Shown here piece after piece: positions 1 to 36,405 of a stretch of 64,000 nucleotides of DNA; the first letter of the stretch is position 1; the number at the start of each line of letters is the position of its first letter. Both the position numbers and the translations under genes were made by a program. Below the pieces are notes generated by a model, which was not told where the DNA came from, made no database searches, and worked only from the letters and a program-made list of their open reading frames with translations. Source of the stretch: Nageia nagi (taxonomy: Eukaryota > Plantae > Pinophyta); assembly GCA_050084985.1 (NCBI GenBank), contig JBITNC010000001.1:203794001-203858000 (forward strand), in the 5' to 3' direction.

Positions 1-2420
1 TGTGTACTTGTTGCATGGTAAGGTCAGATCTAGGGAGTTGGCTGACGAGAGATATTTGGGGCAAAAGAATACCCCTGTATGGCGAGCCTACCAAAAGTGG
101 TGGTATCAAAACAAGTTCCAGCATTTCTGTGAGAGGAATGATTAGCGGGAGTATGATATCTACAAGGATATCAAAGGAGAGTCTGTGGTGAAGAGGATTT
201 CTGATGCAACTATCCAAGTTCTTAGTGTACATGCAAATTTCTTTTTGCAATATGCTGATCGTACATACATCAGAGTCTATGGCTCAAAGGACCGACCCCT
301 GCTCATGCCAAAATATGCCAGTGACAGGTTGATCCTCATGGAGTTTGCTAGGTAGCTTTTTTTCTTGAAGGAGAAAGTCTGGAAAAAGAAGAATGCAACA
401 ATCAATTTGCCTATCTCTATTGCCAAGTATGTGTGTCAGACGTGGGTGGAGGCAGCCAACATGAAGGAGTTGCAGCAGTATGCCTTTTCCAAGGAGGCGG
501 TTGCAAGAAACTATGATCCAGGTCCTAGCAAGCGTAGCGCAATCATAAATGATCTTAAGGATGCTGGCTATCACGCCCTCTTCTTGGATGTGCTGGATGA
601 TGTAGTGGGTTAGGCCTGTGCAAGTGATTCACCCACGAGGTAGTACCTTCCAGACTTACTCATTCTCCTTGATGCAGGGAGAAAGTCCACCCTTTACAAC
701 CAAGTTCTAGTTTTGAACATTCCACTTCTTCTAATGAAGAGACTGACGAAGAGCCTAGTCGTACAGTGGAAGATTTTGGAGAAGAATCGAAAAGCCATGG
801 CGGAAGAGAAAAAGAAGAAGAAGATGATGATGATGATGGTGCTACCGGTATTCCTAAGCAAGAGGATGTAGCTGTAGGTGCCTTTGCACCCGATGAGATG
901 GAGATTGAAACTCTCCCAGATGATAATGAGATAGTGGACGTTGGAACATATGATGATGACATCCAGATCGTTGGAGAAAAATGTGCCAAAGAAGCAGGTG
1001 CCTCCAAACCCCCTCCTACCGAGCATAGGAAGAAGTCCCCTTCCACATCACATAAGTCCTCCACAAAGAGGACGAGCCATGAGAGATCTCCCTAGCCATG
1101 GAAAAAGGGTATATCTATAGGCAGTAATGGAGGAGATGAAGAAGATGAAGGAGAGACTAAGGAGCAGAAGAAAAGAAGGCAGGAAGAGCACCAAGGTAAC
1201 GAGATCACCATTGTTCAGACCACTCCAGCGAAAGAGGTCAAGAATATTGACAATGGATGGCTGTTGGTTTAGAGATTTCCTCCCTAGCCAACAATCGAGC
1301 ATCCAGACCTTGACCTGGATGCTTGCCTTTGAGCCCTCAGCATGAGCACGACTCATGATGAAGATATAGATGAGGACCTGCACTCTGACGATGAGGAAGA
1401 ACTCTCAGATGGTGAGAAGATTCGAAGGGTTGACATTTTTGTCTCCACTTCTAGAAAAGAAATCTCCATCAACCATTGTTATTCGAAGGAGAAACACCTT
1501 TAGAGAGCAGAGGATTACGTCCTTGAGACATTCAAGATGCTTGTGAAGCTGGGACTGATAGCTTGAAAAACATAGTCACGCAGAGTGCTGCAGTCATGGA
1601 ACAGGAAGGCTATGAAGCCAAAAATGAGGTGAAGAGATTAAAAAGGGAACTCATGGCTAGTAGGAAAATCATTAAGGAATTCCAAAAGGTTAGTACCACC
1701 CCCTTAGATCTGTAGAAGCAGACCTCCTTCCATGAGGGTTGGGAAGTGATGAAGGAGTAGCTGAAGAAGGAAGTGATGGAGGCCATCGAGAGACTATCTT
1801 CTCAAATTTACAAGCTCCTTGCTCAAGGTGTAGAAATCAAGGATCTGAAAGCACAAATTTCAGCACACCTTGGCACCATGAATGGTCATCTTCCCAACAT
1901 CCCCCATTTGCAACATATTTACGTTGACAGTCCTGAAAAGCTAGTCTATTGCCATGAGTTCACCTATCATCATGATTGGTTGAACCATGCACTTGAAAAA
2001 TGCAATACGGCCTTGAAAATTTGAATCCCCTTGAGAAAGGAGGTCGAGGAACAAATGAGTGAATATGTCCAACTCAAGTTCCAAGGGGAGGACACCAATG
2101 TAAGGAAGGAGACAATATTGGCAGAAGCTCAGAATCTGTTGTAGGAACATCTTGATATCAATGATCTTAGCTTGCTGAAGGCAGGGCATCCTATCTTCCA
2201 TGAGAGGCGGATGGTCATCTGGAGGCACTAGATGCAAGCTATGTCGAAGAAGATAGATGATTATTTTCGGCATGATGGTAGCACCGTCGGCATTATTTCC
2301 AAAGGCACGCGGAAGGTTGTGGCATTCTTGGAGGAGACCATTGAGTCGTACGATCTTACCGGCGAGGAGTGGAACTCTTCCAGTATCGGATCAGATTTGG
2401 CCTAGGACTGATCCTCTCGC
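1..2420 (+). pseudogene. Decayed large ORF of unit A (unknown TE-associated protein)
   Basis: Fragments YIRVYGSKDRPLLMPKYASDRLILMEFAR, KEKVWKKKNATINLPISI, an acidic tract, and HLPNIPHLQHIYVDSPEKLVYCHEF are collinear with the ORFs of B and C. Multiple stops and frameshifts. Confidence 0.8.
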
Positions 2421-3120
2421 ACGCTTTACTTGCGGTATCTTTTCCATTTTGTTTAATGCATACTTGATGATGGTTGTTATCTTAGACTTTATTTCATTTG
2501 ATTTGACTAGTGTAGGAATGAGTTTTGCTTCTACCAGATCAGATCTGTAAGACTTATTTATGGCTCTGACTAGTCCAAGGATGTGGTTTTTGCTCCTACC
2601 TATTTAGATGTCAGACTTGTCAGACTTTTATTGTATATCTGATTTACTTTTGCATGAATTAGGAGTAGATTAGATGCATTTTGACGTTGGCATTTATATT
2701 TTGTTAGCTTTTAGATGCTACTGGCATAGTTTGGTGTAAACAATTTGATTTTGTATTGGTGTGAGTATTGCGTGTGTGCACACCATATAAGATTTGATGC
2801 CTTTAGGGAAACACTTCTAGTGGCTTATTTATACCCCATTAGGGCCATTTAGAAGGGGATTTTGACACTAGGGATTTTTGCATTGGATCTTTGCATATAG
2901 GATATTCACATTGGGGGAATTATGCAATTTTTGGACTTGGACTACTACATTTTTTTTTTTATGTATTGTTGCATGTGTGAGACTTTGTACTGAATGGAAA
3001 TATTGCATATTAAGGCTCTTACATCTTTGAGATTCTAGCTATAATTTTTTATATATGTAAATTTTTTTGAGCCGTTGCATCCTTTAGTATTTGCATTCCA
3101 TTGCATAGAGGTTCGTTGCA

Positions 3121-4341
3121 TGTGATGACCTAAAATCACCCTTAGCAAAAACAACTCCAACTACGGTAGTCAAACCCTCAACTAATGAAGGAAACACACC
3201 CACGTTGGGCCCCTAGGGCACCCAAGGACACTACAATGCAGACGTGAGCCTCCCAAGGCCTCCACGCAACCCCTACACCTTGATGTCAGCCGTCTAGGGC
3301 ACACACCAACACTTGGCACCTCAATGAATGCCTCACAGATGAATATGCAATGCTTGAACACCCACGAATGCAATAAAGCTTCCAACACCAGTATACAAGA
3401 GATACATGCACATACATAAACCATGCACAACACAATGGAGAGAGAGACACAAGTTGTATTTTATTATGGAATGGTATGGAGTACAATGAGGATCTCAATA
3501 TCCATATCTAGGGTTCCAAACCCTCTGCTAGCCAAACACCACAGGAAAGACTCACTCCCTCAGACTTCGAATCCTCTCCTATGAAGGAGCCTCCTCGAAC
3601 CTTGGCAACCACTGAAGGTAGAAGCTCGCCCTCAGAATACCACTAGATGGAATAGGTGACCCACCTAAGTCGTAGAATGCTAGGTTCCCAACCCTGTCAC
3701 TCCTCTAGACACCATCTAGGAATAATGCTTGGCACCGCCAAGACTTGTCTACCTGATCAGGTTCTCTATAGAAGAAGTATAATCAATAGCTAATCTCATC
3801 ATGGAGCTCCTTCCTCATTATATAGCCTCACGTGTCTATCCATTATGCCTCATTATCATCCCAAGCCAAGACTATTCCAACGTTGGGGTCAATAGGTCAA
3901 CCATGCCAACGTGGGGGTCATATTGCCCCAATATGCTAATGTGGGGGTCCCATGGGCCTAGTGTGCCAATGTGTGGGCCATAAAGGCCCTCAAGGTTGAT
4001 GTGGGGTCTAATGAGCCTCCTTGAGCTGATGTGGGTGTCTAAGTGGCCTTATAAGCCAACGTGGGGTATGTGGGCCCTTTCCAACGCTGGTATGCTCCTC
4101 TATGCACCTCTGGACTATACAAGACTCATGCCTATCTAGGGATTCGCACAATCTGGGGTAACCCATTACAAGTTAACACACACACTACTCAAGGGGAGAC
4201 ATCCCATTACTGGGCTCACAGTGGGGTTCGCATACCATAAGCTCCTGCTTGAGTTACACATGTACAACATGATCATAAACAAACACTAGATTAGAAAGTG
4301 ACCATGACACATTTTGTCAATGGTCCAAATGGAACGTCACA
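3121..4341 (-). mobile_element. Solo LTR S1 (1.2-kb gypsy LTR family) inserted in unit A
   Basis: TGTGATGACC...GGAACGTCACA; TSD TTGCA/CTGCA. Shares CCAACGTGG repeats and the terminal CCCAC...AGTGGGG motif with the LTRs of D-H. Confidence 0.85.
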
Positions 4342-5077
4342 CTGCATAAGGGGTTCTATGCATGTTCGTTATTGAATATCCTCATGAATGTATTTCCTTT
4401 GAAGGAATCAGATTATAAAGTTTATATTGTGAAGGATATCATTTGTGGGATTACGCATATTTGAATGATTCTCTCTCCTTGAGTTACATATTGAACATTC
4501 ATTTGGATGGTTTGAGTTAATTTTTTGCATGGTTTGCACGCAAGTGAATGTATTCTGAGGCCTATAGCTTGTCTTTATACCATTCGGTTAGGTCCTTGTA
4601 CTCACGTCGTCACCTCATTTATACCCTTCCATCGAGTCTTCCACCAAGACCCAACAGCTTCCTGCTCTCGTTTGGTAGTGATTTGAGCATATTTGCTATT
4701 TGCTGCCCGGCTTGATAGTGAGTGTATCGACGTTAATGAATCTGAAGACTTGCGGAGACACTGCATTGCTGGTGATACCTTCATAAGCCATTTCTTTTCT
4801 TTATATCTCTTTGCATTTATCCTAGTGTTTGTCCCTACAGTTGTTATCTTTTTTCGCTTTTGTTCACATTTGTAGTCTTTCCTTATCGAGGAAAGGAACT
4901 CCGGCGTTGTATTTTGCTTGTATACGGTTAACATCATGCATCTTTGACTTCTGAGCCTTAAAGACCATATTCCATGTGAGTGCTTGGGGTAACCAGTCCT
5001 TTCAGGCTAAAACAAGTAACGTTGTTTCCTCCAAGTCTTGTGCATGTTTTAGACTAGGAAAGAAAAACATACCAACA

Positions 5078-9342: not shown

Positions 9343-9407
<65 letters not shown>
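9343..9407. repeat. (TA)n microsatellite
   Basis: About 32 TA units with one interruption. Confidence 0.95.
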
Positions 9408-11146: not shown

Positions 11147-13443
11147 TTCCCCCCTTAATTTGAAAGGGATTAAAACAGAAATAAAACAAAAAATTGTGCC
11201 TCAAGGTGTGTAGAACATTTTTCACCAACAAAAAATAAGCAATCTCCTTAAAAGATCTACCTCAAGGATTAAGCCCAATGTTCTGTACCTTAATCCGAAG
11301 GGGTAGAAATGCTGCAACATAAGTCTTATTCACAAGAGCATTGACAAAATGTCTCCATCCAAACAAGAGTAGTAGTGGATGGAGTTTGGGAATAATGAAG
11401 TGGAACCAAGTCTCCTCCATGAAACCATAAAGAAAGAATTTTCTTCAACATAGGTCATTCCAAAGAAGGTGAAAGCTCCACAAATAAAGAACTTGAACCA
11501 ATCACCAAAAAATCTCTTCCGAATGAAGAGAAACAAGATGTGAAGAATAATATTCTCCACCATGAATACAAAAGATGTGCAAAAAGAATAAGAAGAATAA
11601 AAATGGTTAGAGTATCTTGCACTCATTATAATAGTAATGGGTATAAAGAATAAGAAGAGGATCTAATGATGAAGAATAATACCTTTCAAGGAGTTGGTCG
11701 TTGTGATTCAGTAAAAAAAGCACAAGTGAGATATGATCAATCAGAATATGCTTCATCTTTTAAGCATGATGATTATTTTGGGAAAGAAGAGGATTCCATA
11801 TATGGTCTATTTGAAGCTAATTCCTCCATGCATACACAAAATTCAGTTAATAATCTTGGTAGACAATCATAAGTGGCTAGTCCCATTGGTACAAAAGTGA
11901 AAACTACTCATGAGCTATGCTCTGATGCAAATTTCTATAATAGTTCACTTTCTTAATTTGTCCTTGATCAACACTCTTTGGACCATGAGGATTTGATGAT
12001 CATACCTTTTTCCATTTGGATCAATTACTTCTTTGAAGAATATTAGTTATTAGAACATCATTGAGGAATTTTTCTTGGGTAATAATATTAAAGAACCTCT
12101 CACAAAAGTTGAAAGAGACGTCTAGTGTGAGATCCCTTCCATAATTGAGGATATAAGTTTATTGAATCATTATTTTTAACAAGACATTTTATCTTCTTTC
12201 AATAATAAAAAGAATTTCCAAGTATAATATATTGGGTCTTCTACTTATAGCAAAAGTTTATTTGTCGAGGAATGTAATGGAAGATACAAAATTGTGGTAC
12301 ATAAGCCTATTGATATGCATGATGAGATAACCATTCATAATACTATAGAGAAGTAATGTATAACTCTTATCTCTACTACATCAGAAAATGGGTATATCAA
12401 GTATAAGGTTGTTGATAAGAGCACTACATTCAATGATGCTTTTGAGTCTTTAGTTCATCATGGAAAAGGAGTATCAAATTATTTTCTTAATGGATGTCCA
12501 AGATGAGGTTCACATAACTAAATTTGCTTACAATTGGGAGCATAATGAAATTCATGGTAACATTCTTTATGATATGTTTCACTTTATTGATCATAGAAAT
12601 TTTCTTCATGATGAGGTTCCAAAGGTTGAGCATGTAATTCATGCAGATTTTTATGATTAAACCCTATTATATTCCTTCTATGCTCAAGGATAAAAAAAAT
12701 TGGGCTATCTTTTCTTTTCATATTGAGGTGGGTGATATGGTTATAGATCCTCATGCTTACAAGTCTTATGATGGTATTCATGTTGTTAAATATGTGATTT
12801 CTCATGGGGATCTTTGTCATAAGTTGCATTATTCACTTATAGATGCCTCTTACAAATCATTTGAACATGTGAAGAGAAGATTTCAAGTTGATTTGGCTAT
12901 TTTACTAGCGTATAGATATGGTCCTCTTTTAGATGGAAATATCTTATTTCATATGGATCTAGGTGGAGGTTATGAAGGTTTTGGTAAACAATTATTTTCC
13001 TATAAAAAAGAAAATGAACATACTTTCATTTGGACTATTCCATGGAAATCTAACACTATCACTTATTCACCTATCATTCTATTTAGAAAGGATTGCCATG
13101 GTTAACCATCACTTATGCCCTTTTCGAGATGTCATGGATATGATATAAATTATAGACTAAATGCTTTTGGTGTTTAGGTGTCAAGAAACTAATTTTTTTA
13201 TTGTACAAGGACTTGTTGGTATGTTTTTCTTTCCTCGCCCAAAAGATACACAAGACTTGGAGGAAACAATGTTACTTGTTTCCGCCTGAAAGGACTGGTT
13301 ACCCCAAGCGCTCACATGGAATATGGACTAGGGCACAGTGGTCAGAGATGCATGTTGTTAACCATATACAAGGGAAATACACCATCGGGATTCGTTTTCC
13401 ACAAAGAGGAAAGACTGTTGATGTGAACGAAAGCGAAGAAATA

Positions 13444-14688
13444 TGTGATGATCCAAAAATCAAATTTCCCATTTAGCTAGCAATACAGGATAGGCTTCCA
13501 ATTCACACATTCAAACCCTCAAGCATGCAACATTAGGGTTAGAGCATTTACCTTCAACATTTAGATACCCAAAATGCCAACGTCTAGCATATGTAAGCAT
13601 ACATCAATGAACACAACCTTAGAATGCTAATGTCTGGCTCATACATGCATAATCCAAACCCTAACACATTAAGATGCCTCTGAATGATAAACACAAGCAT
13701 ATACAACCATCAAGATCCAACGCATGCATAAGATGAAGCAATACAATTAAAGCATGAGATCCAAGTGCCCTCTGGCTATACGAATGATATACAATGATAG
13801 CAAGTACAATACCAAGTCCAATTGGCAATCGCTGGCCTCCAACGAGCCAACTAGGGCACAACAATTCGATCTCTCCAATATTGAACAATTTCGGAACCAT
13901 GTTATTGATTCACTCCCTCAGATCCCGAATCCTCTCCACTGAAGGAGCCCTCTTCGAAACCAGGATAACCGAATGAACGATAGAAGTAAACCCTCAGGAT
14001 GCCACCGGATGGGCAAAGGTGCTCCACCAATGCCATAGATAATTAGGATCACAATGGCTGACTACCTTTTAGATGCTCCGCCTAGGAATGGAATGCTTAG
14101 CATCACTGAGACTTTTGTTTGAAAGACTGAAGTAGTAGTAATGAATAATAATGGCTATCCAGTAATGAAGGTTCAATGTCTATTTATACATTACTTGTGT
14201 CTGGAACTCACCTAGGTGTCATCCCAGGCCCATCTAATCCAACGTTGGGTATTTGGGGTGATTTAATCACTGAAAGTGCCAACGTGGGGGTCATGATCAC
14301 TCATAATGCCAACGTGGGGGTCATGATCACTTAATGAGCCAACATGGGGTCCCTAGCCCTAAAAGTGCCAACATGGGGGTACTGGAGTTCTCATGAGCCA
14401 ATGTGGGGGTATGGGACCCTCCTCAGTGTGGCGCTAGCATGTTGGTGGCCATCCAACACTCTAATGCATAAACATACCTTGGGATTCCCACAATCCGGGA
14501 TCTCCAATGCAAAACATGCCTACTCTACTACTTCGGAGGGAGACGTCCCACTTGGGGCTCACAATGGGGTCCATTAGACCCATTAAGTCTCCTATCCTAA
14601 GTTACATAATGCAAATACAAATAAATCAAATAAATATAGTACAAGATGGCCAAACTGGTCCCACTAAAAGTACAAGGGGGATGTCTAT
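13444..14688 (-). mobile_element. Solo LTR S3 inserted in unit B
   Basis: TGTGATGATCC...GGGGGATGTCTAT (degenerate end); approximate TSD AAATA/AAAGA; family motifs present. Confidence 0.8.
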
Positions 14689-16464
14689 AAAGATCACAAA
14701 TGCAGGGATAAATGCATAGGAATATCAATAATGAACTTACGAAGACATCACCAGTGATGCAATGTCTCAGCAGGTCATCTCCGGATTCATTAAGAAAATG
14801 TATTCACTTTATCAAGCCGAGTACCAAATAGCAAAAGGCTCAAGTTACTGCCAAACGAGAGCAAGAAGTTGTAGGGTCTTGGTGGAGGATTGGATGGAAT
14901 AGGGTGAAGGGAAATGACCAACATGTGAATAGATGAAACTAATTGAATGACATAGAGATAAGTTATACACCTTAGAATACATTCAGTTACGTACAAACCA
15001 TGCAATGAACAACTTAAATCACTTCTAAAGATATTCAATCATATTTTCTTAAAATTTGTAGTTTTCAAAGAAAATGAACTTAAGCAGTAAAAATCATTCA
15101 AACCAGCAAGAGAGTCTCATAGGATAATATGCATTATCCCACAAATGATAATCTTTACAATATTAACTTTATAGAACTATTCCAGAAATAAATAAACTCA
15201 CATTGATATTCCATAACATGAACAAAAGCATTCCTTTCTTGATTGCAATGATCTCAATATGTTAATCAACATGAAACAGAGATACGACAATATACATCCA
15301 TGATATGCAAAGAATCCCTTATGCAACAAATCCTTATGCAACCATATGCAAAAATCCTCAATTTTAGTGGATGCAATAGGCTTATGTGATCAACATTATG
15401 CAAAATCCCTTTCTAAATTGCTCGAATGTAGTATTAATAGGCCATTAGAAGTGTTTCCCTAAAGGCATCAAATCTGATATGGTGTGCACACACGCAACAC
15501 ATACCGATACAAAATCTGATTGTTTACACAACAATATGCAAGTGGCATTTCAAAGCTGACAAAATATAAATGCCACAGCCGTAATGCATTTAATCTATCT
15601 CTAATCTATGCAAAAGAAAATCAGATATTCAATAAATGTTTGGATTATGAACTGATGGGAGCAAAACCTCATCCTTGCACCAATTAGAACCATAAATGAG
15701 TTTGACGGATTTGATATTGTGGAGCAAAATCTCATCCCTACACCACTCAAATCAAGTAAATGAAGTTTGACATAAAAACAACAATAACAACCACCATCAA
15801 TATGCATTGAATACTAGAAAGGATGATTGCAGACAGAATTTGCGAGTAGATTAGATCTAGGCGATATTTGATCCGGTACTGGCAGAGTTCCACTCGTTTG
15901 TGAGATCGTACGACTCAATGGTCTCTTCCAAGAATGCTACGGTCTTCCGTACTCCCATGGAAACCATGTCAATGATGTTGCCATTCTACCTTAAGTAGTC
16001 TCTAATCTACCTGGACGTAGCCTGCATTTGGAATCTCTAGATGACCATCTACCATTAGTCGATCATACGATGCCCTACCTTCAACAAATTGAGATCTTCG
16101 ACATTTAAATGATCCTGTATTAGGTTTTGGGCCTTTGCCAATACCGCTTCCTTCTTGTGCACGTTGTTGTCTTCCCTTTTGAAATCTGAGTTGGTATACA
16201 TACTTACTCATATGCTCCTCTACCTCGTTTCTCAAGGGGATCCTGACTTTCAGAATGATATTACACTTCTCGAGTGCATTCTCAACTAGTCCTGTTGATA
16301 CATAAACTCATGGCAGTAGACCAATTTCTTGTGTCTGTCAGCGAAGATTTGCTATAGATGGGTGACGTTTGGGAGATAACCATCTAGCTTCTCGAGGAGG
16401 CTATACATCTGAGAAGATAACTTCTCAATGGTCTCCATCATCTCCTTCTTTAGTTGGTCCTTCA

Positions 16465-17722
16465 TGTGATGATCCAAAATGGATCTCAAACCAAATATTA
16501 GTAAACGATAAACAAAGACACCAACCAGGGTTTCCAACACCCTCAAAAATGGAAACCCTACACCATCGTTAGACCTCTAGGGCACACAACACTACAAGCT
16601 TGACGTCAGCCTCCTAGGGCTTTCAATCACACTAAACACCCAACGATTGCTCACAATGATGAATTAATGAATTACATACATCCACAATGTCTATAGTGGA
16701 AAACCAACATAAACAAACACCACAACAATGCCACATGTACAAATAAGGAATCAAGATGCTCAACGATGTCACTAGAATAGAATTGATAACACAAATATGA
16801 AATCCAATTCCCAACGACTTGTATTATGATAGGAAATGAGCTGCAATACAAAACCTTTCTCCAAGAGCTAGATGTTGGCCTCACAGGAGCCAACTAGGGA
16901 AAAACCACTGAGAAATCCTCATTACAATCTACCGAACCACAAGATTAGATCCACCTCCTTAGACCTCGATTCCTCTCCATTGAAGGAGTTCTTCTCAAAC
17001 CTTGGCGACCAACTGAATGGTAGAGATGTATCTTGGAAATGCCACCGGAATGGGCTTGGTGACCCACCAAAGCCGTAGATAGTCAGGGATCCCAACGCTT
17101 GCCTACCCTCTAGACGACCCACCCAGGATGTGTTGCTTAGCACCGTTAAGTCTTCTACCCAAAGCTCTGGTATCAAGAAATATAATCAACAATCTACCCT
17201 AGCAATGAGGCTCTCATGTCTATATATACTTTTGTTATGTCTAGAGCTCACCTTGAAATCATCCCAAGCCCCTTTTAATCCAACGTTGGGGTCAATATGG
17301 TCAAACCAGCCAACATGGGGGTCATAATGGCCCAATGTGCAAATGTGGGGGTCATAAAGGCCCTTTATGCTGATGTGGGGTTCATAATGGCCCAAATAGC
17401 TGATGTGTGGGTGCTGGAGTGCTTAAGTGCCAACATGGGAGTGTGGGACCCTCCCCAATGTAGTGCAATCATGCTGAAGTTTGTCTAACCTATAAACACA
17501 TATATAGACATCAGGATTCCCACAATCCGGGATCTCTATACAACTCACAAGCCAAAACTACTACTCGGGAGGGAGACGTCCCACTTGGGGCTCACAGTGG
17601 GGTCCATAGGACCTATTATTATTCCTGTACTGAGTTAAAATGAAGTACATGAAAACACACTATACTGATATAATACAAGATGACCCAATGGGTCCCATTA
17701 CATATTCAAGGGGGACGTCACA
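16465..17722 (-). mobile_element. Solo LTR S4 inserted in the ORF of unit B
   Basis: TGTGATGATCC...GGGGGACGTCACA; perfect TSD CTTCA. B coding sequence resumes on both sides. Confidence 0.92.
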
Positions 17723-18168
17723 CTTCATCAACTCCCATTCTTCATGGAAGGAAGCTTGTTTCGTCAGGTTGATAGGGGTGGTGCTAACGGTCTAGAACTC
17801 TCTAATGATTTTCCCGCTAGCCGTGAGTTCCCTTTTTAGCCTCTTCACCTCCTTCTTGGCTTCATAGCTTTCTGTTGTGCCCTACACAACTCACCTCAAA
17901 ATTTCACAATTTTGGGGACCCTCTGCAACTAAGACCCGTCAAGCGTCCAATCAGAACAACCTTCCCTCACCTCCAATGGACTCGAAATAAAGCCTATCAT
18001 TCTAGCATCAAAGTGTAATCATCTGCCAAGTCTTGGTTGTGTCACATTGAAGACTACAACCCTTGAAAAATGACTAAGTCTGGAGAGTTTAAGTTGAGTC
18101 TAGGTGGAACTCGGAAGCCTGAGTCAAGTGGAAACCAAGCAAGTTGGATCGGGGCCTATACCAGGCCT

Positions 18169-19021
18169 GGCGCATGTTCTAGGAGGACAAAATGTTCTCT
18201 TTGTGGGACGTGCACTCGGGCTAGGAGGACACCTAGTTTCAAGGTAAAGTTCGAAAACTCAAATTGGGTCAATCCTAGACCCAACGCATGCCATGAAAAG
18301 ACAATTTTGTGTTTTTGGGGCATGCACTAGGCTCAGGAAGAGGCTTAGGATAGAACGAAGGCTTGAAAAGGACAATATAGCACATTTGAAGGCTGTTGCA
18401 TGCCTCAAAAAGACAAAATCTTGTCTTTTGGGAGCATGCGCCAAGCCTAGGAAGGTTTATAGATGAGACGAAACTGAAAAATTGGCTAAGGCATGGAGCC
18501 TAGAAGCCTAGACGTCGCTCTAGTGTGACCAGAGGGGCTGGCGCATCCCTCAAAAAGACAATTTCATAACTTTTGGGAGCATGCGCCTTGCCTGGGAAGA
18601 CACCAGCACAGAGCAAGCTTGAAAATTTGGTTAAGTCCCGTGAGCAAGAGACCAAAGTAAGCTAAATCTGGCCATCTACAACCCAACACATGCCTCATGA
18701 AGATAGGATCATGACTTTCTGGATCATGCACCCAGACTGGAAGAACCGGAGGAGTTGGAGCGTGTTTCAAAAAGACAAAATCTTGTCTTTTGAAATCATG
18801 CGTCAGACATGGAAGGGTCCTTGGGTCGAGTCGTTTGAGAAAAATGGGCAAGTTGGACCCTAGGGAAAGTGAGCATCAAGCAAGATCAAGTCTTAGGACG
18901 GAGCTCTAGGATCAAGTTGGATGGACAGGAATGCAAGGAAGGCCAACGTGGGGAGTGCATTCACCCCAAGGTTGGCGTATGTTTCAAAAAGACAAAATCT
19001 TGTCTTTTCTAGGCATGCGCC
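18169..19021 (+). repeat. Array of 7 palindromic ~48-bp repeats with non-repetitive spacers in unit C
   Basis: Consensus about GGCGCATGYYTCAAAAAGACAA-AATC-TTGTCTTTTGRGGCATGCGCC. Copies start near 18169, 18283, 18395, 18540, 18685, 18758, 18974. Confidence 0.85.
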
Positions 19022-19177
19022 AGGCTTGAAGACACTCCAAAACCCCACGTTCGGTCTTGGTTGGTTGGGAACAAAGTTTTATGGTGACACGCATCTCGAG
19101 GCCGGCTATCTAGATGATTGGGATGTATTTTTCTCCTTCACCCAGCCAACTAGGGTTTGAAGGAAGCCAACCTCAGC

Positions 19178-19185
19178 TATAAATA
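19178..19185 (+). promoter_or_regulatory. Candidate TATA box for the unit C ORF
   Basis: CTATAAATAC between the hairpin array and the ATG at 19398. Confidence 0.5.
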
Positions 19186-19397
19186 CCAACATGGGGACCT
19201 CATTTTTCTAATTTCAGATTGCACTCCTCTTCTACACTTGCGCCAAAATTGCAGAATTTTGAGTTTGAAATTCGTCTAGTTGCTTGAGAAGGCTTTCGTA
19301 AGGGACTAAGAAGGCGAGGAGGGAGACGTGGAGGTCATAGGCTTGCAAGAACACCAACGCATCACCTTGGAAGGTCCTCGCCACTCGCGACAACATC

Positions 19398-22300
19398 ATG
19401 GCTAGTTCCAAAAGCAATTCGGCTAAGGACTATGCACGTGATTTGGAGAATATCAAACAAGAGTGCATCATCATTATATGCGAGCGACAAGACTCCTTGC
19501 CTCAAGGGGCTAAGTTCTCTAAGAATGGACTAGCCACTGTTGAAGACACAGATTGGCAGAAGGTGGACCCGATGCAAATGAGGGAGAAGATCAGAAACAT
19601 GCCAATTAGCAAATTGAAATAGGACATTGTCTTCTTCTCTGGACTCTCAAATTGTGCCTTCTTCCCATTCACAGCCCTATTCCCAAAGTTGTGCTTGGAA
19701 GTTGGCCAACATTGGAAGAAAGGTGAGAGAGTACTTCGTGACATCAAAGGCAACATCATTGTGGACTTCAACCTTGAAGCCATCAAGACAACATTTCAGT
19801 CGACTTCGAAGGGCAACTTTGAGTACACAGGAAAATTTGTTGGCGTGCTATCGAGATACCAATAGGGTAGCCACGACAATCAAGAGTTGGATGTTGGACG
19901 AACACCATGGCTTGAAGGGCAACGCACTCATCAATGCTTGTCGCTACCACTTCTATCCGTCTATGGAATTAATGATCCTCATGTTGTCGCGAGTTCTCGG
20001 GAAGGAGGATGCGATCAAATTCTGGAAAGAGTTCTTTGGCTTCATCATGGAGATAGCTAGGGGGGAGAAGGTCAAGTGGAGTAAGGTGTTGAGTGATAGC
20101 ATCATGGACCAGTTGTCATCAGTGGGGACCAAACACAAATTTTAGCTCTAGTCATATTTGGTATACCTGCTGCTTCATGGCAAGCAAAGGCCTACAACTT
20201 TGGGGGAGGCAAACTTGATTGAGAAGGGAACATATATCATAAGGAAGTGCTACCCTAAGTGGAAGATCGAGAAGAGATGGGAGAACTTCATGATGAAGAC
20301 TGATGGATGGGAATATGAGATCTACAAGGAGCTTAAGGGAGAAATCACTGTTGCAAGGATCTCCAACTCAGCCCAGGATGCATCGAGGAAGGATGGAAAC
20401 TTCTTCATCCATCACCAACACTACTCCTAAATTCGCCTCTATGGATTAGCTGTGGAGCCATATCAATTGCCTTGGTATGTGAGCAATAGGATGTTCTTGA
20501 AGGAGTTGATGAGATAGTTGACCTACTTGCATGAGCACGTTTGGCAAAAGAAGTCAGCCACTTCCAATTTGCCGGTCATAGTGGGGGAGTATCAGTGTAG
20601 AGCGTGGGTGGATGTGAATTCCGTGATAGAGGAGTTGGGAAAATACAACTTCCAGAAGATGCCAATTGCTAGCCAGTATGATCCTGAGCACCGGATCCAC
20701 GACTTCTACATGAAGGAAAGGAAGAAAGCCTACGAGCATAGGCCACTTACAGAAAAGGAGCCATTTTGATATGTCAACACTGAAGTGGAAGTGAAGAAGA
20801 TTCGTGCCAAAATGCAAGAAGAGGCTTAGAAGCAACAACTGGAAGTAGAGGCATCGATTGATAAGTAGTTATCTCAATTGGGGGGAAAGAAGCCACAGGA
20901 ATGTACCTCTAAGGTCACGCAGTTTCCATTGACGATTGAGGAGCCCGTTGGATAGTATGCGTTCATGCATGGGAAGAATCCTGTTGAGCAGGTAGTGCAA
21001 CAGGTCAGAAATACAGTCTACGAACATGATGTGAGGGAATTGGAGCGTGTGGCGACTAACAAGGTGGTGAGATGTGTGAGGAAAAGAAAAGCAGATTCAT
21101 CGTGGCCCCAAAGGCCACCAAGAACAGCGGTGTCACATCCATCTTAGACCATCCCATCGTCAGTATCAGAGTGCTCGGGCTGTTTGTACGAAGTTGACAA
21201 CACCCCTGAGAAAGAACAAGCAGAATAGTAGGAAGAAAATGATTGTTAGAGCATGCTTGCAAATGAGGAATACGAGAGCATACCTGAAGATGATTTTGAT
21301 GAAGAGCCAGAGAACGAGTATGTAGCTAGTACTGTTCCCGGGGGAGATATTTAGGATGTGTAGGGTGAATAAGAGCCATCATTGGAGATATTGAAGGAGG
21401 TCCATAGCCATACCATCTTAGAACCTTCAACATCTCGAAGGAAAGACAAAGACCCTACCCTCGAGTCAATACCAAGGAGAACTCAATTAAAGAGGGGATC
21501 TCAATCTAGATTATTAGGCACACCTAGGAAAGGTGCTGGACAAGAAGAGAGGCCTTTGAAGAGAATCAAAGAGAACTCCATCATTGTCGCTGAAGCAGTT
21601 ATTGAGACCCATTAGCCATCGCCTAATCATGAGTGGGGCATAGATATGGATGAGCCTTGATGTCTTTAACATGGATGTCGGAGAAGAATTCAGACCTAAA
21701 GGAGCAGAAGATCAGATTGGGGAGAGTTCCACTCGTTTGGGGAGGAGTCAGACTTATGTGCACATGATAGATAATGCGGTATGCATTAAGACTATAGTAG
21801 CTGACAAGGAAAACACTTAGGGCCTTGGAGACTTGAGGCAAATAAATCAGATCATCAACATAGGCCCCATTGGTGTGACTAGTAGAAAACATGTGATCAT
21901 CTTGATAAAGAGTTTAAAGAAAGAGATAAAGAGTTTAAAGAAAGAGTTGGCAGCCTAGCGAAGATTGACTCGTGAGCTTGAGTCAGCCAAGGTGCCTACA
22001 GAAGAGCTTCGAAAGGTGAAACCCCTTAGAGAAGGCATGATGGCAGTGAAACAGGAGGTAATGGATGAGATTTTAGCAATGTCAAGACAATTCATTATGG
22101 CCCTTCACAAAATTTCGTTTGAGGAAGACCAGTTGAAGTATGTTGTCACCGAGAGGTTCAGGTTGCACAGGTTTTTGGAATCCCAGAAACCCATGATACT
22201 GAGATTCGAGGTGACACTGGTTCTATTTGGACATAAACAATCAAGTACTCACCCGCTTCCAGTAGACAGAGGAGGTGATCGCAATCAACGACAAGGCCCA

Positions 22301-22640
22301 CTCATGTATGGAGCAGATGGACTTTCAGGTACAGTTTTTGGAAGAGAATACCACCATTTGCGAGGCCGATGAGTTAGTGTTGGAGGTTAGACACCTTCTT
22401 CACATCTTGATGATGACATAGGATGTGAACTTTTACCAGTCAGGGAGTCATTTGAGGCATATGTGATGGGCTCATGCGTGGAAGGCTGAGATGTAGAAGT
22501 TGGTGGACAAGGTCGAGGATAGCATGCTTGTTAGCAGATCGAAGTTCTCGGAGATGTTGCATGGAGTTGAGTCTACGGTAAGATTCTTAGCCTAGGGCTT
22601 CGAGGATTGAGTTGCGGGCTTTGGCCCACCATTGGCTTAG
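19398..22640 (+). pseudogene. Decayed ~1000-codon ORF of unit C
   Basis: MASSKSN...VEDTDWQKVDP...LCLEVGQH...LSRVLGKEDAIKFWKEFFGFI...VKWSKVLSD...SYLVYLLLHGK...YQLPWYVSNRMFLKELMR aligns by eye with unit B. Premature stops and frameshifts; 3' end approximate. Confidence 0.8.
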
Positions 22641-25600
22641 CTATTGTTTTGCATTAGATTAGTTTATTTTCATAAAACGTTTTTATTTTCAAGCTAGATC
22701 TTTTTAATATTATTTTATTCCCAATCTCGTGAAGGATGAGGACTTGCTCCTACGAGTTTGGAAGAAACTTTGTAAGTCCATGTGGCACATTTTCATTGAA
22801 CCTCACTTTATCTCTTGATACTTGTGATTAGGGTTAGGGCAACACTGTTGGTTGCTCCTAAAACTATTTATACCCCATTTTGATTCATTTCTAAAGGGGG
22901 GATTGACATTTTGACGACTTAACAAGAACTTTGCTGGACCAAAATTGCTCTTAAGTGTTAAAAATGGTGTACGTGGATGCTATTGTGATTATATACTTGT
23001 TCATGTTGGAATAGTGGATGTGAATGAATGTTAGATAGTGTTATTTGTGTTTATTCTATCATTGCTTGATGTTATTTCAGTTGACTTGGTGTAGCTCGTA
23101 AATTTCATTGAAGTGGACGAGAGCTTGCTTGCATACCCTTAGAAGTAGTTGATTGGTATCTTGTGGATGATATTTCACTATTTGCAATATAGGTTTGGTA
23201 ATCTTGGGATGTTTCACTAATGTTGTTTGCCGCAGGAACTTCACCCAAGTCCTTCAGTTCTACCCTGGTCTCATCCTATGTCATTGCGCTAGCTTCACGC
23301 TGCATCCATTCAGCTATTTTTGTTGTTGGTTGGTGGATTGGATAATGGGTGCTTGGAACCTGCATCGAACCCAAGTGAATCGACTTCCGAGAGTCCTTAC
23401 CAAACCTGTGAGCTTGTATGCCCACTTTTGCATCTGATTCCCATAGTTTTTCCAACATCTTTTTTTCTTTTATTTTACTCCTTTTTTCCACGATTTTCAC
23501 ACCTAAATTTCCCTTTCAGCATTTATAGAAACAACCTCATTCAAGTCCAAATACAAAACTTAGAGTCCCTTGATCCCACACATGATATTCATGTTGGTGG
23601 CTGCTCTAAACATCTCAACTACCTCTTGGGTTATTCTCGCATAGCCCGCGAAGCTAACCTTTATGATAACTAGTCCCCCCATAGCGGGAGGGAGTAACGT
23701 CCCTTTACCTGAGGTGTTTGCGTTTTTTCCACTACCTTTTGGGTAGGAAAGAGAAACACCCCAACAATTTCCTGTTCCATGAAAGCATCATTTTGAGTTA
23801 CAATGTGCTTCTGGGCTATCAAACCTAACTTAACGGACATCTTAAACATCTCGATCATACAGTTGTCGGGCCTCTGAGGATGTTTCTCCGTGGAGTAACA
23901 GTGGTTGATGGAGATCTATTTTCGAGAACTAGAAACAAAAGTATCAACTCTTCTAACTTTCTCTCCATCGGAGAGCTCCTCTTCTTTATCCTCAGATCTC
24001 AAGTCCTAGTCAATTTCTTCGTCATGAGCCATACTTGTGCTCAGGGCTCTAAGGTAGGCATCTAAGTCAATATCTGGATGTTCGGTTGTTGGCTTGGGAG
24101 GGAGCCTCTGCACCGGCACTCGACCTCTGTAGATCTTCTTGACTTCTTTGGTTGGATTGGTCTAAACAAGGGCAACTTCGTTAGTTTGGTGCTCGTGCTT
24201 TCTCTTCTTCTTTTTGTTCTTCGGTCTCCTTTTCATCATCTTCATCTTCACCACCGCGACCTATTGATATACCTTTCTTTCGTGGCTGAGGGGATCTTTC
24301 ATGGTTTTTCCTCTTCAGAGAGGGCTTTTGAGAAGACAAGGGCGACCTCTTTCTGTATTCGGCAAGAGAGGGTTTGGAGGCACCCACCTCTGTTGTACAT
24401 TTTACTTCGACGATTTGGACTTAATCATCATAAGTCCCAATGTCTATAATTTGGTCATCATCATCATCCGGGAGAGTTTCAATATCTATCTCATCAGGTG
24501 TAGAAGCACCTATAGCTACGTTGTCTTGGCTAGGGTACTCTTGATTAGTAGCATCATCTGCATCATCATCATCATCTTCTTCTTTCACCAAGACTTTCCT
24601 CGTGACTCTTTGTCTCGGAGTCTTCTACTGTATGGCTAGGTTCTTCATCATTTGCTTTATCAGAAGAAGAAGTGGAGTGTTCGGAAGAACTGGAACTTGG
24701 TTGTAGTGGGGTAACTTTTTCTCCACATCTAGGAGGACGAGTGGGTCTAGAAGGGGTTTCTTTAGTGGGTGAATCACTGGCGCAAGCTTCCTCTAGAATA
24801 CTGAAGGGGACAATGCAGTAATCAACATCTCTCAGGTCAGCCACCAGCACACGACGTTTGCTAGGTCCTGAGGCATGTTCCCTTGGCGTTTCTTGCCTTT
24901 TCCCCATGGGAAGGAAGGACTTTTTGACTTGTGGAGGTACATTGTTTCCAGAAGGAGGGGATGTTTTGATCCTCAATGGGACCTCTCTAGGTCTTGCCTT
25001 TACAGTTCTGGGTCTCTGAGGCGTCCTTTCTCCTTGGAGGGGAGCCTTATTCCTTCTCAAAAGAGCATCTATCCTCGCTATCTCCTCCTCATCTCACACA
25101 TTTTGGTACTTCTCCACATTCCCTAAAAATTTATGCTAGTAGGTAACAGGTTTTTGGAATGCGATGCTGTAGAAATGAGCAATCACACCTTTTTGATCAT
25201 AATTTCTGGTCGCCATCTCCTTGAAGAAGACGTATTGCTGCAACTCCTTCATGTCGTTGGCCTCATTCCAGATTTTGCAAACATAACTTGTGATTGAGAT
25301 GGGCAAGTTGATGGTTTTATCCTTCTTTCTCCATACTCATTCCTTCAAAAACAATAATTGCCTAGCAAATTCCATGAGGATGAGTCTATCACTGGCATAT
25401 CTGGGCAGGAGCAGGGGTTGTTCTTTGGAGCCATAGACCTTGATGTAAGTATGATCAACATACTGCAGATAGAAATTTGCATGTACACCGATGGCCTGAA
25501 TAGCAGCATCAGAAATCCTCTTGACCATCGATTCTTCTTTGATATCTTTGTAAATGGAGTAGTCCCATCGATTGTTCCTTCTCATAGAAATGCTTGAACT

Positions 25601-26920
25601 TATTATGGTACCACCACTTCGGGTAGATCCGCCACACTGGAATGCCTTTATGGCCTAAATATCTTTCATCTGCAAGCTCTCTTAATCTGAGCTTGCCATG
25701 CAACAACAGGTACACAAGATAGGATTTCATGTAGAACCTTTTGCGGGAGCCAAAGTAGGCTAGCTAGTGGCATAAGGCATCATTGATTACCTTGCTCCAT
25801 CTGATGGCTCAATGTAATAAATCCGACGAACTCCTTCCTATATTTAGAGTCATTTTCCTGACCTATGACTCTGGAAAACAAAGTGATCAACTTAGAAACT
25901 ATAGGAAGGAACTCTTCCCTATGGGCGTTGATCAATCTCTGGCCCGAGATGCCCTGGTAGTCTTCATACAACCATCTTCTTATATAATCTCCAGGTCAGG
26001 CAATAGAATCATGGAATTGCTTTGAATTGATTAGTGTATAATCATCTCCATATCTTCTCCATCCAAAAGCGGTTTCGATCCCTTTCGGAGAGAAGTTCAT
26101 GATCATGTTTCATTTGGTGTCCAAGAGAACTCTTTTATCATATTTGCATCGTTTGGCTACCTCATAGCACAACTCAAGAAATGGGACAACAAAAGGCATC
26201 ATAGTGGCGTTGAACAACCCACAAGAATGGATGATTTCATCTGATAAATCCTCCTTGCTGATGGAAGCAGTGGAGGCTATAGTCTGGATGGGGTCAACAT
26301 TTCCCCAATCTATGTCTCCGACGAAGATGTATTTCCCCTTGAATTTGGCTTCAGGGAGCTCTGGTTTTTCTCTCTGTTGCAACTCTATTTGAAACTCTTC
26401 TAAGAGTCTTTTCATCAAGTCCCTTGTGACATGTCTTTCAAAAAGTTGTCCCTGAATGTTCTTGGCCTCTGATGGGGGAGGCCTCACCTTAGAAGTCATC
26501 TTAGATCCTAGAAAGTGTGGAGAAACTTGCAGAAAAAGGATTTGAAAACTAGTTGAGAATACCCCAGAAATGACTAAGTATCAAACTGAATGTGCTTCAA
26601 AGAATGCCGCAACAATGGCTAGACATGCAGGTCTAGGTTGCAAAATATCCCTTAAAAATGAACTGGGACTGCCCTCTTTTCTAGAAGATGCATGGAGGGT
26701 TTGTGCATGGCACAATGCATGTATGCCACTTGTCTTCTTGGTCTTTCAACTCCTGGCTTCTTCTGTACTTAGACAATTTTAGGTCACAGATCCTAGGACA
26801 CATGGATTTGGATGTGTGCTTTTTCACTGTTTGGAAAACATACGATTGGGTTCCTGATGAGCAAAACACATCACTTACTCAAATCTAGGCGAACAATAGT
26901 TCATACCACCACTTCTTATT

Positions 26921-28507
26921 AGGGTGCATGAATTAGGGCACATGCTTTTTCATGTTCCATAGAACATGTGCCTTGAATTCTTATGCAAAAATGAAAGGAG
27001 AATGAAATGCACCTGGCAATGATGTATACTTAGCCAATTTCTTGGGTTTGGACTTGGGCGCACCGTTTAGGATGAGTCCTTGGAGCATTAGTGAGAAAGC
27101 ATGTGCATAGGTCAGTTTAGGTTAAGTCTTATCAAAAGATGTAAAATGAAGTATAGAAAATGGACCTTGAGGTCCAGCTTACCCTCTTCAAAAATGGCCA
27201 CTGGTAGTCTAGATGCCTTTCAAACCCTTATCTCTCCTAGGCACATCGATTGAGATGAGTCCTTAAGCATGTTTCAAAAAAGGTGTGACTGGAGGATTTG
27301 ATCCGAAATGAAGTGGAAAAATGACAAAGGGGTGACTTGATATATATACTTTTCAACTTGCCATGTGTCACCTTCTGATTGGGCTTAAATAAGGTCAAAT
27401 GATGGAGCTGGGATGATGGGCGCATCGATTAGAGGACGTGCAAAAGCATGTCCAAGAATGCATGCGCCAGCCAACTTGTACACCTTCAATAGTTAGTCAA
27501 TTTTCATCATGCTTGCAAGCTCTTGCAAATTGGTTGCATCTTTTGAGAGGGGTGCATAAGCATGTACCTAAAAACATGTGCCTGGCCCTCTTCCACTTGG
27601 ATTTTATACTTTGACTTAGTCAAATATGCTCCTCGCTAGGATGTCTGGAAATGGGTGCACCAATTTGGGTGAGTTCCTAAGCACACTCCAGAGACCATGC
27701 ACCTAGTTTGTGGCACACTTTCCAATGCAATGGATTAAAAATTATAAATTAATGAAAATGACCTTGAAATTTTCAATCCAGAACAGGGCGCATCGTTTGG
27801 GGGATGTGCTTTCTGGACTTAGCTATGCACAATGCTCCGAATTCAACCAAACAAACTGAATGCTGAGACTAAGCTTCCTTTTATAGACTTGCTGGGGTGG
27901 ATAGGTGTCATGCAATGATTGGTGTGTGTGAAGGTTCAGTGCATGTGGACACACTTGTCTTCTTCTCAATAAACGCCTAGGCCCAACACTTAGCCAATTT
28001 TATGTCTTGAAATAGGGCGCACTGATTTGGGGACATGCAAAAGCATGTACCTCAAAACATGTGCTTGGCCTTCCTTGAAATTTTTCCCCAAAAATGACTA
28101 ATTGTTGAGATACTTCTTCAGCCTGCGTGCATCGATTTGGGGACATGCAAAAGCATGTACCTCAAAACATGTGCTTGGTTCCTTTTTTACACTTCCGTGA
28201 AATTTTCTAAGTATTGAGGATATCTCTCCTTCCCTAGGTGCACCGTTTAGGGGATGCGCAAAAGCATGTCCCTCAAAAGTTGCACTCAAGTAGGAAAATG
28301 CAAACTTTCTTCCAAAATGACCAGAATGAACCTTGATAACATAATGCAAAAGAGGGTATGCAATTTCCACAAAATGACCAAGTGTAATGAGTCATGAATG
28401 ATGCAATTCAAGGCTGAAAATGCATGACTTAAGCCAAAATTATGTAGTATGAAGGAGGGGGCACGTGTTAGGGTACATTCAAAAGCATGTCCCTCAAAAT
28501 CTGCTCC
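26921..28507 (-). repeat. Array of ~11 palindromic ~50-bp repeats with non-repetitive spacers in unit B
   Basis: Plus-strand consensus about GGGCGCATCGATTTGGGGACATGC-AAAA-GCATGTMCCTCAAAACATGTGCC. Copies near 26921, 27056, 27239, 27418, 27531, 27652, 27785, 28015, 28125, 28236, 28457. Confidence 0.8.
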
Positions 28508-29789
28508 ATAGTTGAAATGACACAATTTCGACTTGTTTCTATCATGTGGTGCAAATTCGTCATATTTTCTTCTCTATCCTCTAAGATGCATGCATTTACT
28601 TAAAAAAAATTCCTTCATGCCTTTATGTTTCAGTACAATGAGGGTCCTTAAAAATGCAATTTTTTGGGAGGTGTTGTGCAGGCACAACAGGACTATGGTA
28701 TTTTTACCTTAGAGAAATAAAAAGACTCAATAATATCTATATAAATTTCTATATCAAGGAACCATTCCAAGAAAGAAGAAAATTGTTAACAAATGGGCAC
28801 TAAGCGAAGGGTTAAACATCATGACCATAAGAGCAAGGCATCATAACAAATGCATAAATGCAAGACTAAAGATGAGGAATATGTATCAACTATTAGAGTG
28901 GTGTAACAAAAGTGTGGCAAACAAGGAAAATGTGTTGAAGGACTTCAAGGACAAGCCAAGATTTAGGAATTTGAAATAACTTGGAAGAATATCATACGAC
29001 TTGAGAATGTGATATGGTAATTTAAAGCAATCTCAAGGATTCTAAAAAAGTGGATGGACTGTGACAAGCTATCAAAGAACGATGTTCGTGATCAAGTTCA
29101 TAGCATGAAAGCATCACAATATTTTGAAGACTTCGAGAGATATAAAAGCTCCAAGGACAAAGCTTTTGAAAAGGGAATGGTATGTAATGACCCCTTATTT
29201 GGCATACATTGGTGACATATTGACATCCTTATGTGGGCTCAAACGATTATTAGAAATAATATCATATAAATAGAAGCAAATGTAATTCTCATCATCATCA
29301 TTTTATTTGGAGATGATACTACATACTATTTCTTCTAATCTTGTAATTCATACTACATAATTTTGGGTTAAATCATTCAAATGATGATGATGAAAATGCA
29401 TGACTTAACCCAAAATTGTGTAATTTTTATCATCATCATATCTTATTTGCTTAATCACAATATTTGGAGACCTTCCCTCTCGAAGTGGCTATCATCTTTG
29501 GACTTCTGTACTTTGGTATTCTTAGTACGACTACCATGAATTATTCTTTGATTGATATTTATGGTGATATATTTCTTCTATCACTCTTCAATTCTGTTAT
29601 TTTGAGATAATATTCTGTTATTTATCATTGGGTTCATTAAATCTCTACTCTTGAATATCATTCTATTTCTTTCAAGTCACATATTTGAGCATACAATGTC
29701 ATGCAGCTTCACATTTTTTTCAATCTCCTCACTCTTGAATGTCACCTCCTATTGCGTGATACAATTCATTAATTTTCCATTTACAATCA

Positions 29790-35160: not shown

Positions 35161-36393
35161 ATTAAAACATTGTATCACACAAAATTTGGCTTAGTATTGG
35201 CATAAATGTGACGTCCACTTTTGCAAAATGTAATTAATTCTGGAATCCAACTGATTCCCCTTCTGTGCATATTTACTTATGTTTTATTAGTTAGTACTTG
35301 GGATAGAAGATTAAATGGGTCATAGGACTCCACTGTGATCCCCAAGGGGACGATTCCTTCCCAAGTGTAGATTAGAGTGTTTTAATGTACTTGGAGATCC
35401 CGATACATGATTGTGGGAATCCCAAGGTCTATTTAGTATTTAGTGGATGGATGAGCACTTAATGGCCCTAACATTGAGATTGGGAGCATTTGTACACATG
35501 CGCCAGCTTTAGGGAGACTTCTAGATCCCCACGTTGGCCCATGACACCCACATTCCCCCCTAGATGCCCACACATGTCTCCTAGATCCACACATGCATTC
35601 TTGGACCCACATGGAGCATGAGGGAGGCCCAGATACCCACGTTGGACCTGGAATGACTCCTAGTTGCCAATGTTGGGGCTTGAGCGGACTGGGTGATGTG
35701 ATTGAGGTGTAATCCAAATCCAGGAAAGCTATATTAGCCCTTGAGCCTCATTTGCTAGATATGTTGAATTGTTGATTATTGCTTATACTGTTCGGTGGAC
35801 ATAAGTCTTAGTGCAACGCTAAGCAAGATCCCTAGGTGTAGCATCTAGGAGGATTAGTAGGTTGGGATCCTGTTAGTCTATGGCTTTGGTGTAGCACTCT
35901 AGCCCATCTGCTGGTATTCCGAGGTTGAGCTTCTACCTTCAGTGGTTGACAGGATTTGAGGAGGGCTCCTTCAGTGGAGAGAAATTAGGTTCTGAGGGAG
36001 CAAGATTGTCCCATTCACCATTCGTCCATCCAGCAGTGAGAGACACATGTTGTGCCTAAGTTGGCCTCTTGGAGGGCAACGTCCAGCCCTGGGGGCTTGG
36101 TATTGTATCTTTGACCATCATTTATCTTGCATACAATTGTTGGGCACTTGTATCGCCATATTTGTCTTGTGTATGCTTTACTATTGCAACAGTGTGTTGT
36201 GATTGTTCATTCTTGCATATTGTAGCCATATGTTGGCATTGTGAGCTTGTATTTATTGATATCTGCTAGTCTTGTCCAGACGTTGGCAATATAGTATTGT
36301 TTATGCTTAATCTAGATGCCCTAGGTTAGACATTGGACCATACTTGTGTATTTTGAGCTATTTGCACTTGATTTTGTAATTGGATCTTTACAA

Positions 36394-36405
36394 TGGTATC
36401 AGAGC
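36394..36405 (+). promoter_or_regulatory. Primer-binding site (tRNA-iMet) of element D
   Basis: TGGTATCAGAGC one base after the LTR-terminal CA. Confidence 0.9.

Follow-up and report, generated by a model that had tools for sequence, protein, structure and literature searches.

The stretch of DNA analysed here, a window of 64,000 nucleotides from the gymnosperm Nageia nagi (assembly GCA_050084985.1, contig JBITNC010000001.1, positions 203,794,001 to 203,858,000 of the forward strand), raises the question of what kind of mobile element leaves behind single units of 6-7 kb that end like the long terminal repeats (LTRs) of retrotransposons and contain a large gene, with no retroelement genes inside them. 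Two such units, B and C, are probably solo LTRs from a retrotransposon of Tat type. Its LTR would contain, in the sense direction, a gene predicted to encode a PMD/VANC-like protein, beside an array of palindromes that the protein may bind; that B and C have the architecture of solo LTRs is very probable in its own right. Coordinates are positions of the window, and LTR sense was fixed by the orientation of the primer-binding site (PBS) in a related metagenomic locus, L007.

Boundaries, nesting and LTR identity of the units

A preliminary description of this DNA, made from its letters alone, placed B (~7.1 kb) and C (5.9 kb) between TGTTG...CAACA termini and 5-bp target-site duplications (TSDs; GGACT for B, CTTTC/ATTTC for C), and these boundaries are borne out by a motif scan, by joints in sequencing reads and by a step in read depth. 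B runs from TGTTG at 13214 to CAACA ending at 28689, with GGACT on either flank; C occupies 17873-23766 (5,894 bp, TGTTG...CAACA), and its flanks CTTTC and ATTTC differ by one mismatch. The units and the insertions within them are:

1..5077, plus strand: unit A, the 3′ part of a B-family LTR, with the gene to ~2410, the tail block at 2826 and a chromovirus solo LTR at 3121-4341
13214..28689, minus strand: unit B, very probably a solo LTR, ~7.07 kb net (TG..CA ends, TSD GGACT/GGACT, colinear with A and with a copy in locus L013, read joints, depth step)
13214-13443, ~14691-16464, 17723-17872 and 23767-28689: net pieces of unit B, LTR sense being the minus strand
13444..~14690, minus strand: chromovirus-family solo LTR with degenerate ends, in the tail of B (self-comparison, read joints)
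16465..17722, minus strand: chromovirus-family solo LTR in the gene of B (TSD CTTCA/CTTCA; joint 16459>17723 in 4/4 runs)
17873..23766, plus strand: unit C, very probably a solo LTR of 5,894 bp, in the gene of B and in opposite orientation to it (TSD, empty-site joint, homology of the 3′ terminus and tail to the LTR that borders the PBS in L007)

When the window was compared with itself, A and B proved to be reverse-complement relatives, 71-83% identical over blocks whose ends coincide exactly with the starts of the insertions into B, and A is without the three insertions that interrupt B. These younger, nested insertions are C and two ~1.25-kb chromovirus-family solo LTRs, and contigs from public sequencing runs span the empty site of each (13438>14689, 16459>17723 and 17873>23773), the joint across C being present in three of four runs. 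At 13214 the read depth climbs from ~4-23 to 156-1,016 in all four runs. All three units share one terminal motif, and B and C share the other; the 3′ end of A adjoins another LTR, and no PBS is found there. Two exact TSD pairs were seen among 4,472 pairs of TGTTG and CAACA, against 5.2 expected by shuffling, which means that such pairs occur by chance and that the boundaries of B and C rest on the recurring termini, the joints and the depth step; together these indicate that both units belong to families that are abundant and have precise boundaries. The terminal inverted repeat of B and C is 5 bp only. As the preliminary description had stated, the units hold no retroelement genes or PBS: neither gag nor pol nor a PBS nor a polypurine tract (PPT) was found inside them by motif scan and translation, with a Pfam search of seven gene pieces, and Rfam had no match in 13000-29000.

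The nesting of a C-type LTR inside a B-type LTR in opposite orientation is seen twice, in the window (17873-23766) and in L013 (7024-9610), at different sites; it could reflect chance or an insertion preference.

The identification of the units as LTRs comes from relatives outside the window. Metagenome contigs were scanned with the shared 22-nt terminus, yielding 16 loci, of which 12 were dropped as chance matches to the 22-nt pattern alone and four were kept as plant repeats related beyond the pattern; scans of IMG/VR yielded no locus. In L007, the shared terminus is followed by 6 nt, a PBS-like 17-mer starting with TGG, ~70 nt, a short aRH-like tail, a linker and a reverse transcriptase (RT; RVT_1, E 1.3e-7). 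The 17-mer is presumably complementary to tRNA-Asn. Because PBS and RT lie behind it, the terminus is the 3′ end of a 5′ LTR, and the accessory gene therefore runs in the sense direction. The LTR of L007 and a 2.6-kb unit of L013 have the array, a TATA box, ~300 nt and the same tail, without the gene; L013 also carries two copies with the gene, one B-type and the other a second C-type copy.

The accessory gene, its LTR setting and its predicted product

The internal features of B and C are:

15858..26499, minus strand: broken accessory gene of B, ~1,160 codons net, interrupted by C and the insertion at 16465-17722
18290..19030, plus strand: palindromic array of C, core AAAAGACAA..TTGTCTTTT, five copies, upstream of the TATA box (5 versus 2 in shuffles; folding z -3.3 and -5.4)
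19178..19185, plus strand: putative sense TATA box of C at +1,306 from the 5′ end, conserved in position and followed by an initiator-like pyrimidine tract
19398..22640, plus strand: broken accessory gene of C, ~1,060-1,080 codons, with predicted PMD/VANC-like N-terminal region, acidic linker, coiled coil and C-terminal region
22835..22876, minus strand: conserved tail block of C, reading on the minus strand as a TATA box, ~20 nt and a telo-box-like motif
27100..28500, minus strand: palindrome array of B, core GGTACATGC..GCATGTCC, seven to eight copies
27341..27348, minus strand: sense TATA-like box of B at +1,342 from the 5′ end

In LTR sense, the order is ~1.3 kb with palindromes, a TATA box, the gene where present, and the tail. 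The hairpin array of the preliminary description is right as to the presence of palindromic repeats and wrong as to their layout, which is not a tandem array: each unit has five to eight dispersed copies of 25-45 bp, and the three different cores are family-specific. A sense TATA box stands at +1,250 in the gene-less unit of L013. The tail block, situated 857-1,030 nt from the 3′ end, is full in five C-type units, and a related block is present in A, in B and in the B-type copy of L013. Its motif TATTTATACCCC lies at 2826 and 22865, just where it had been reported; it had been taken for a TATA site of the unit, and it reads as a TATA box and promoter on the antisense strand, so that from its sequence the tail block is likely to be an antisense promoter. 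The orientation of the PBS puts the gene downstream of the only sense TATA box, and hence in R/U5 by default; the earlier placement of the gene in U3 as probable is not established.

The genes of A, B and C are all broken. The reading path of A begins before base 1 and ends at ~2410, the traced path of C includes ~25 stops and at least two frameshifts, and within 13214-28689 there is no stop-free stretch longer than 175 aa, so the ~1000-codon open reading frame (ORF) of the preliminary description has to be replaced by a pseudogene path. The N-terminal regions of the B and C genes are 35-43% identical. The rate of non-synonymous relative to synonymous substitution (dN/dS) between natural copies, a test that had been suggested for this gene, was 0.13, 0.18, 0.22, 0.20, 0.08 and 0.15 in the six unsaturated pairwise comparisons (two others were saturated), and 0.57 and 0.60 in two non-coding controls, which are biased low, their segments having been chosen by protein score. 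These values indicate that purifying selection acted on the gene during the spread of the families. With a full HMMER search 83 homologs were obtained, of up to 488 residues; a hypothetical protein of Taxus chinensis is one of them, and the only one named by organism among ten that were looked up. Word-seeded protein searches added nothing beyond four proteins. The homolog P0017 matches C with E 2.8e-20 and B with a pairwise E of 4e-10, and aligns with the gene pieces of the window from its N-terminus onward. A coiled-coil-like segment in the C-terminal third scores 1.40 in C and 1.50 in A, against maxima of 1.38 and 1.45, respectively, in 100 shuffles.

Structure prediction covered the N-terminal 488 residues, as represented by P0017 (pLDDT 82, pTM 0.76). 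Among 48,161 chains compared with this model by VIA-align, the DNA-bound protein VANC21 (9lnk_A) came first with Z 8.7, root-mean-square deviation (rmsd) 4.7 and 248 of 362 residues aligned, the next chain having Z 3.4; a domain-only model of P0017 (pLDDT 74) again placed VANC21 at the top (Z 6.6, rmsd 4.6, 197 residues aligned; next 3.0). VANC21 is the sole chain with Z of at least 5 for both models, which share one query and so are not independent. ESM Atlas offered no usable match for P0017 or P0030, and a profile search of PDB sequences returned just three rows (E 0.7-2). The match to VANC21 gains weight from two reports, that VANC shares structural homology with MAIN, a PMD protein (available text of PMC13547354) and that extra ORFs of Tat elements encode a PMD plus a coiled coil (excerpts of PMC4408406). 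On the models, the N-terminal domain probably has a PMD/VANC fold.

Lineage, proposed role and alternative explanations

The element probably belongs to the TatII lineage of the Tat group of Ty3/gypsy retrotransposons. According to the accessible sections of PMC6317226, aRH before RT is the order of TatI and TatII, and TatII is the gymnosperm clade. The RT of L007 has 48% identity to an RT that bears an aRH and 36% to the chromovirus RT. A further point of likeness is the 5-bp TSD; the presumed Asn-type PBS, the short aRH-like remnant upstream of RT and the homolog from Taxus would fit as well. Published TatII elements have TSDs of 5 or 4 bp, Asp or Asn PBSs and sizes that reach 18,138 bp (PMC6317226 supplement 5), and two 5.9-kb LTRs with an interior of ~6 kb would equal that 18.1-kb upper size. 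Of 27 TatII elements, 23% have a forward extra ORF at the 5′ side and 26% have one at the 3′ side (PMC6317226 supplement 5), as would be expected if both LTRs carried a gene. The difference is that extra ORFs are not placed inside the LTR in the published accounts, as far as their accessible text goes (PMC6317226, PMC4408406). The survey of Neumann 2019 is described as limiting LTRs to 6,000 bp (PMC6317226, in part), a limit that would exclude B-type LTRs.

Large accessory genes are known from other Tat elements, namely the PMD and coiled-coil ORFs of TatIII and Ogre and the antisense ORFs of Retand, Grande and RIRE2 (excerpts of PMC4408406 and PMC7264820), and the gene described here resembles them in its predicted PMD-like N-terminal domain and coiled coil and its putative own promoter. 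In the excerpts those ORFs are internal, either preceding gag or following pol in antisense, and the extra ORFs of plant LTR elements in general are described as lying upstream of gag or in the interval from pol to the 3′ LTR (PMC7264820, in part). Unlike the TatIII, Ogre and Retand ORFs, the gene of B and C lies between LTR termini, reads in the sense direction, is kept in solo LTRs and has no match to PF10536 or PF04195. A parallel in position is sag of mouse mammary tumour virus (MMTV) and similar ORFs in the U3 of retroviruses, likewise LTR-borne protein genes that persist in solo LTRs; the gene here is ~3x longer, its protein is unrelated, and U3 placement is not established. The literature searched contained no gene of this kind inside a plant LTR and no VANC-like role for one, key papers and one supplement being outside the search. 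The LTR-borne gene architecture is well supported, and the extra ORFs of Tat elements as such are already known.

If B and C are solo LTRs of this kind, recombination between two gene-bearing LTRs of 6-7 kb would have produced them with the whole cassette kept. Transcription of the gene would start from the TATA box that lies ~1.3 kb inside the LTR, and its protein may bind the palindromic array upstream of that box, as a dimer if the symmetry of the palindromes is a guide; bound there, it could hold off host DNA methylation and keep its own LTR promoter active, as VANC does in VANDAL elements, and the gene-less 2.6-kb LTR families, retaining the array, could use the protein in trans. VANC proteins are reported to bind short motifs repeated in the non-coding DNA of their own transposon and to cause loss of methylation, and protein and motif to diverge together between families (PMC5735166, PMC10398659; available text). 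The likeness to VANC21 of VANDAL21 from Arabidopsis (PDB 9LNK) extends over the predicted N-terminal fold, the coiled coil and the family-specific short repeats in the non-coding DNA of the element. The differences are that VANC21 belongs to a Mutator-like DNA transposon of eudicots and B and C probably to an LTR retrotransposon of a gymnosperm, and that VANC motifs are non-palindromic, 8-9 nt long and in tandem repeats, as opposed to dispersed palindromes of 25-45 bp for which binding is only predicted. Ikeda 2017, in the part available, speculated that a captured PMD is used by Mutator-like elements for anti-silencing. By analogy with VANC an anti-silencing role of the protein comes close to an even chance without quite reaching it. 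Somewhat more tentative is the proposal that a complete anti-silencing system (VANC-fold gene, promoter and palindromic targets) is packed into a gymnosperm LTR, in which case solo LTRs may be counter-silencing cassettes, gene-less LTRs their parasites and the PMD-type extra ORFs of Tat elements VANC-like factors.

Several observations weigh against the preferred reading, and the alternatives draw on them. A PBS was found at one of nine inspected 3′ ends, that one gene-less, and at none of the five gene-bearing 3′ ends; no gene-bearing LTR was seen in a paired element, and the loose ends at the B terminus are heterogeneous, with no PBS among the 24 inspected of 45 listed. The claim that the LTR carries the gene is partly supported: the terminus that adjoins PBS and RT in L007 speaks for it directly, as does a predicted fold unlike that of a transposase or integrase, and its counterpart in a paired gene-bearing element is lacking. 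Short LTRs with the gene outside them, which the preliminary description had set against this claim, are half borne out, for the LTR of the paired relative has no gene between TATA box and tail, and half not, since the gene was not found outside an LTR. These facts, together with the occurrence of both complete units as TSD-bounded singles, are what would be expected if the gene-bearing units were LTR-derived, single-unit, non-autonomous elements moved by a related integrase, with only the short gene-less form paired. That explanation is nevertheless improbable: no route is known by which a unit without PBS and PPT could be reverse transcribed into a full integrase substrate, the sample of 3′ ends is small, solo LTRs of another family are common in this window, and the TatII extra-ORF statistics fit a gene in both LTRs. 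Solo LTRs are, on the other hand, reported to be rare in Picea and Pinus (PMC5751070, in part). As to lineage, the aRH remnant of L007 comprises 12 residues (58% identical to the end of an RVT_3 domain, E 0.11, no Pfam match, the rest deleted), gag and protease are missing from the element, and no extra ORF is reported for lineage II in the accessible text of Ustyantsev 2015 (PMC4408406); with a remnant too short for significance and gag and protease absent, TatII is likely rather than proven. As to the fold, identity to VANC21 is 6-7% and Z of 6.6-8.7 lies within the range in which the tool may report a common arrangement; a Foldseek search of PDB and viral models matched neither model of P0017 to anything, VANC21 included, and no Pfam family was assigned to any of seven gene pieces of the window or 58 homologs, PMD (PF10536), Transposase_28 and Athila ORF1 among them. 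The same empty Foldseek result means that no capsid, integrase or transposase fold is seen in the folded region, and a DNA transposon with a transposase or Mutator-type accessory gene, an idea favoured by the origin of the best structural match in a Mutator-like element, is accordingly not indicated; it is highly implausible, given a terminal inverted repeat of 5 bp only, a 5-bp TSD, the lack of a transposase or RNase H-fold match in the N-terminal 488 residues and, above all, the terminus that adjoins PBS and RT in L007, which largely refutes it.

The remaining alternatives leave the solo LTRs in place and differ over the role of the protein or the position of the gene. A fold match gives no function by itself, and the host PMD proteins MAIN and MAIL1 are reported to promote silencing (PMC5418596, in part); the ratio of observed to expected CpG is no higher in the array than in the gene (C, 0.45 versus 0.45; B, 0.32 versus 0.41), and gene-less families keep the array. 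A PMD-family gene with another role, such as nuclear import, particle structure or a scaffold, and palindromes that serve as host-factor sites or RNA hairpins would account for all of this, and is unlikely without being remote; against it, non-coding repeats with a core peculiar to each family, next to a VANC-like gene, are the pattern known from VANC (PMC5735166, available text). A stronger contender, doubtful though it is, overlaps with the preferred reading and places the gene in U3: the tail would hold the start of the genomic RNA (TATTTATA in sense), the upstream TATA box would serve the gene only, as for MMTV sag, and the arrangement could have arisen when a former 3′ extra-ORF cassette was absorbed into U3 as the polypurine tract shifted. 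No internal feature is better conserved between B- and C-type units than the tail block, its distance from the 3′ end would give an R-U5 of ordinary length, the upstream TATA box is degenerate in L007, and strong-stop DNA of 4.6-5.7 kb and a long ORF upstream of gag would be avoided; against it, the TATA box and telo-box-like start region of the tail block read on the antisense strand only, and a gene-less LTR retains the upstream sense TATA box, together with its initiator-like tract, at +1,250.

Neighbouring elements and implications

L007 shows two further arrangements. At 6270-5700 (minus strand) the PBS stands almost directly before the aRH end and RT, from either a one-off deletion or a gag-less family. 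At 1-5300 (minus strand) is a nested element with aRH between RH and integrase, apparently in gymnosperm DNA; this arrangement is the Ogre/Retand order, described for angiosperms (PMC6317226, in part).

Elsewhere in the window, an 18.2-kb chromovirus-family element (35207-53436; LTRs 87.5% identical, TSD ATAAA, tRNA-Met-type PBS at 36394) holds a stack of the same family in opposite orientation (38443-45114, 45630-51601 and a solo LTR at 40247-41501). Behind its PBS a stop-free frame of 303 codons (36769-37680, plus strand) has no Pfam family and a related frame in L013 (692-3, minus strand); it is possibly another accessory gene, that of a non-autonomous chromovirus derivative. At 61690-64000 (minus strand) a broken pol, in which RT, integrase SH3 and a chromodomain are recognised, lies beside a 3′ LTR of the 1.2-kb family and types that family as chromovirus. 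AT-rich tandem duplications of ~250 and 348 bp are found at 9901-11105, with an (AT)33 tract before them at 9343.

LTRs of 6-7 kb are at or above the 6,000-bp limit of the survey, and such elements can be missed; their genes can then be annotated as hypothetical proteins of the host, as with the Taxus homolog. The function of the extra ORFs of Tat elements is described as an open question (PMC7264820, PMC4408406; available text), and a VANC-like fold beside a family-specific array makes it directly testable. If the proposed role is true, sequence-specific anti-silencing, shown for Mutator-like DNA transposons, would extend to the LTR retrotransposons of giant gymnosperm genomes.

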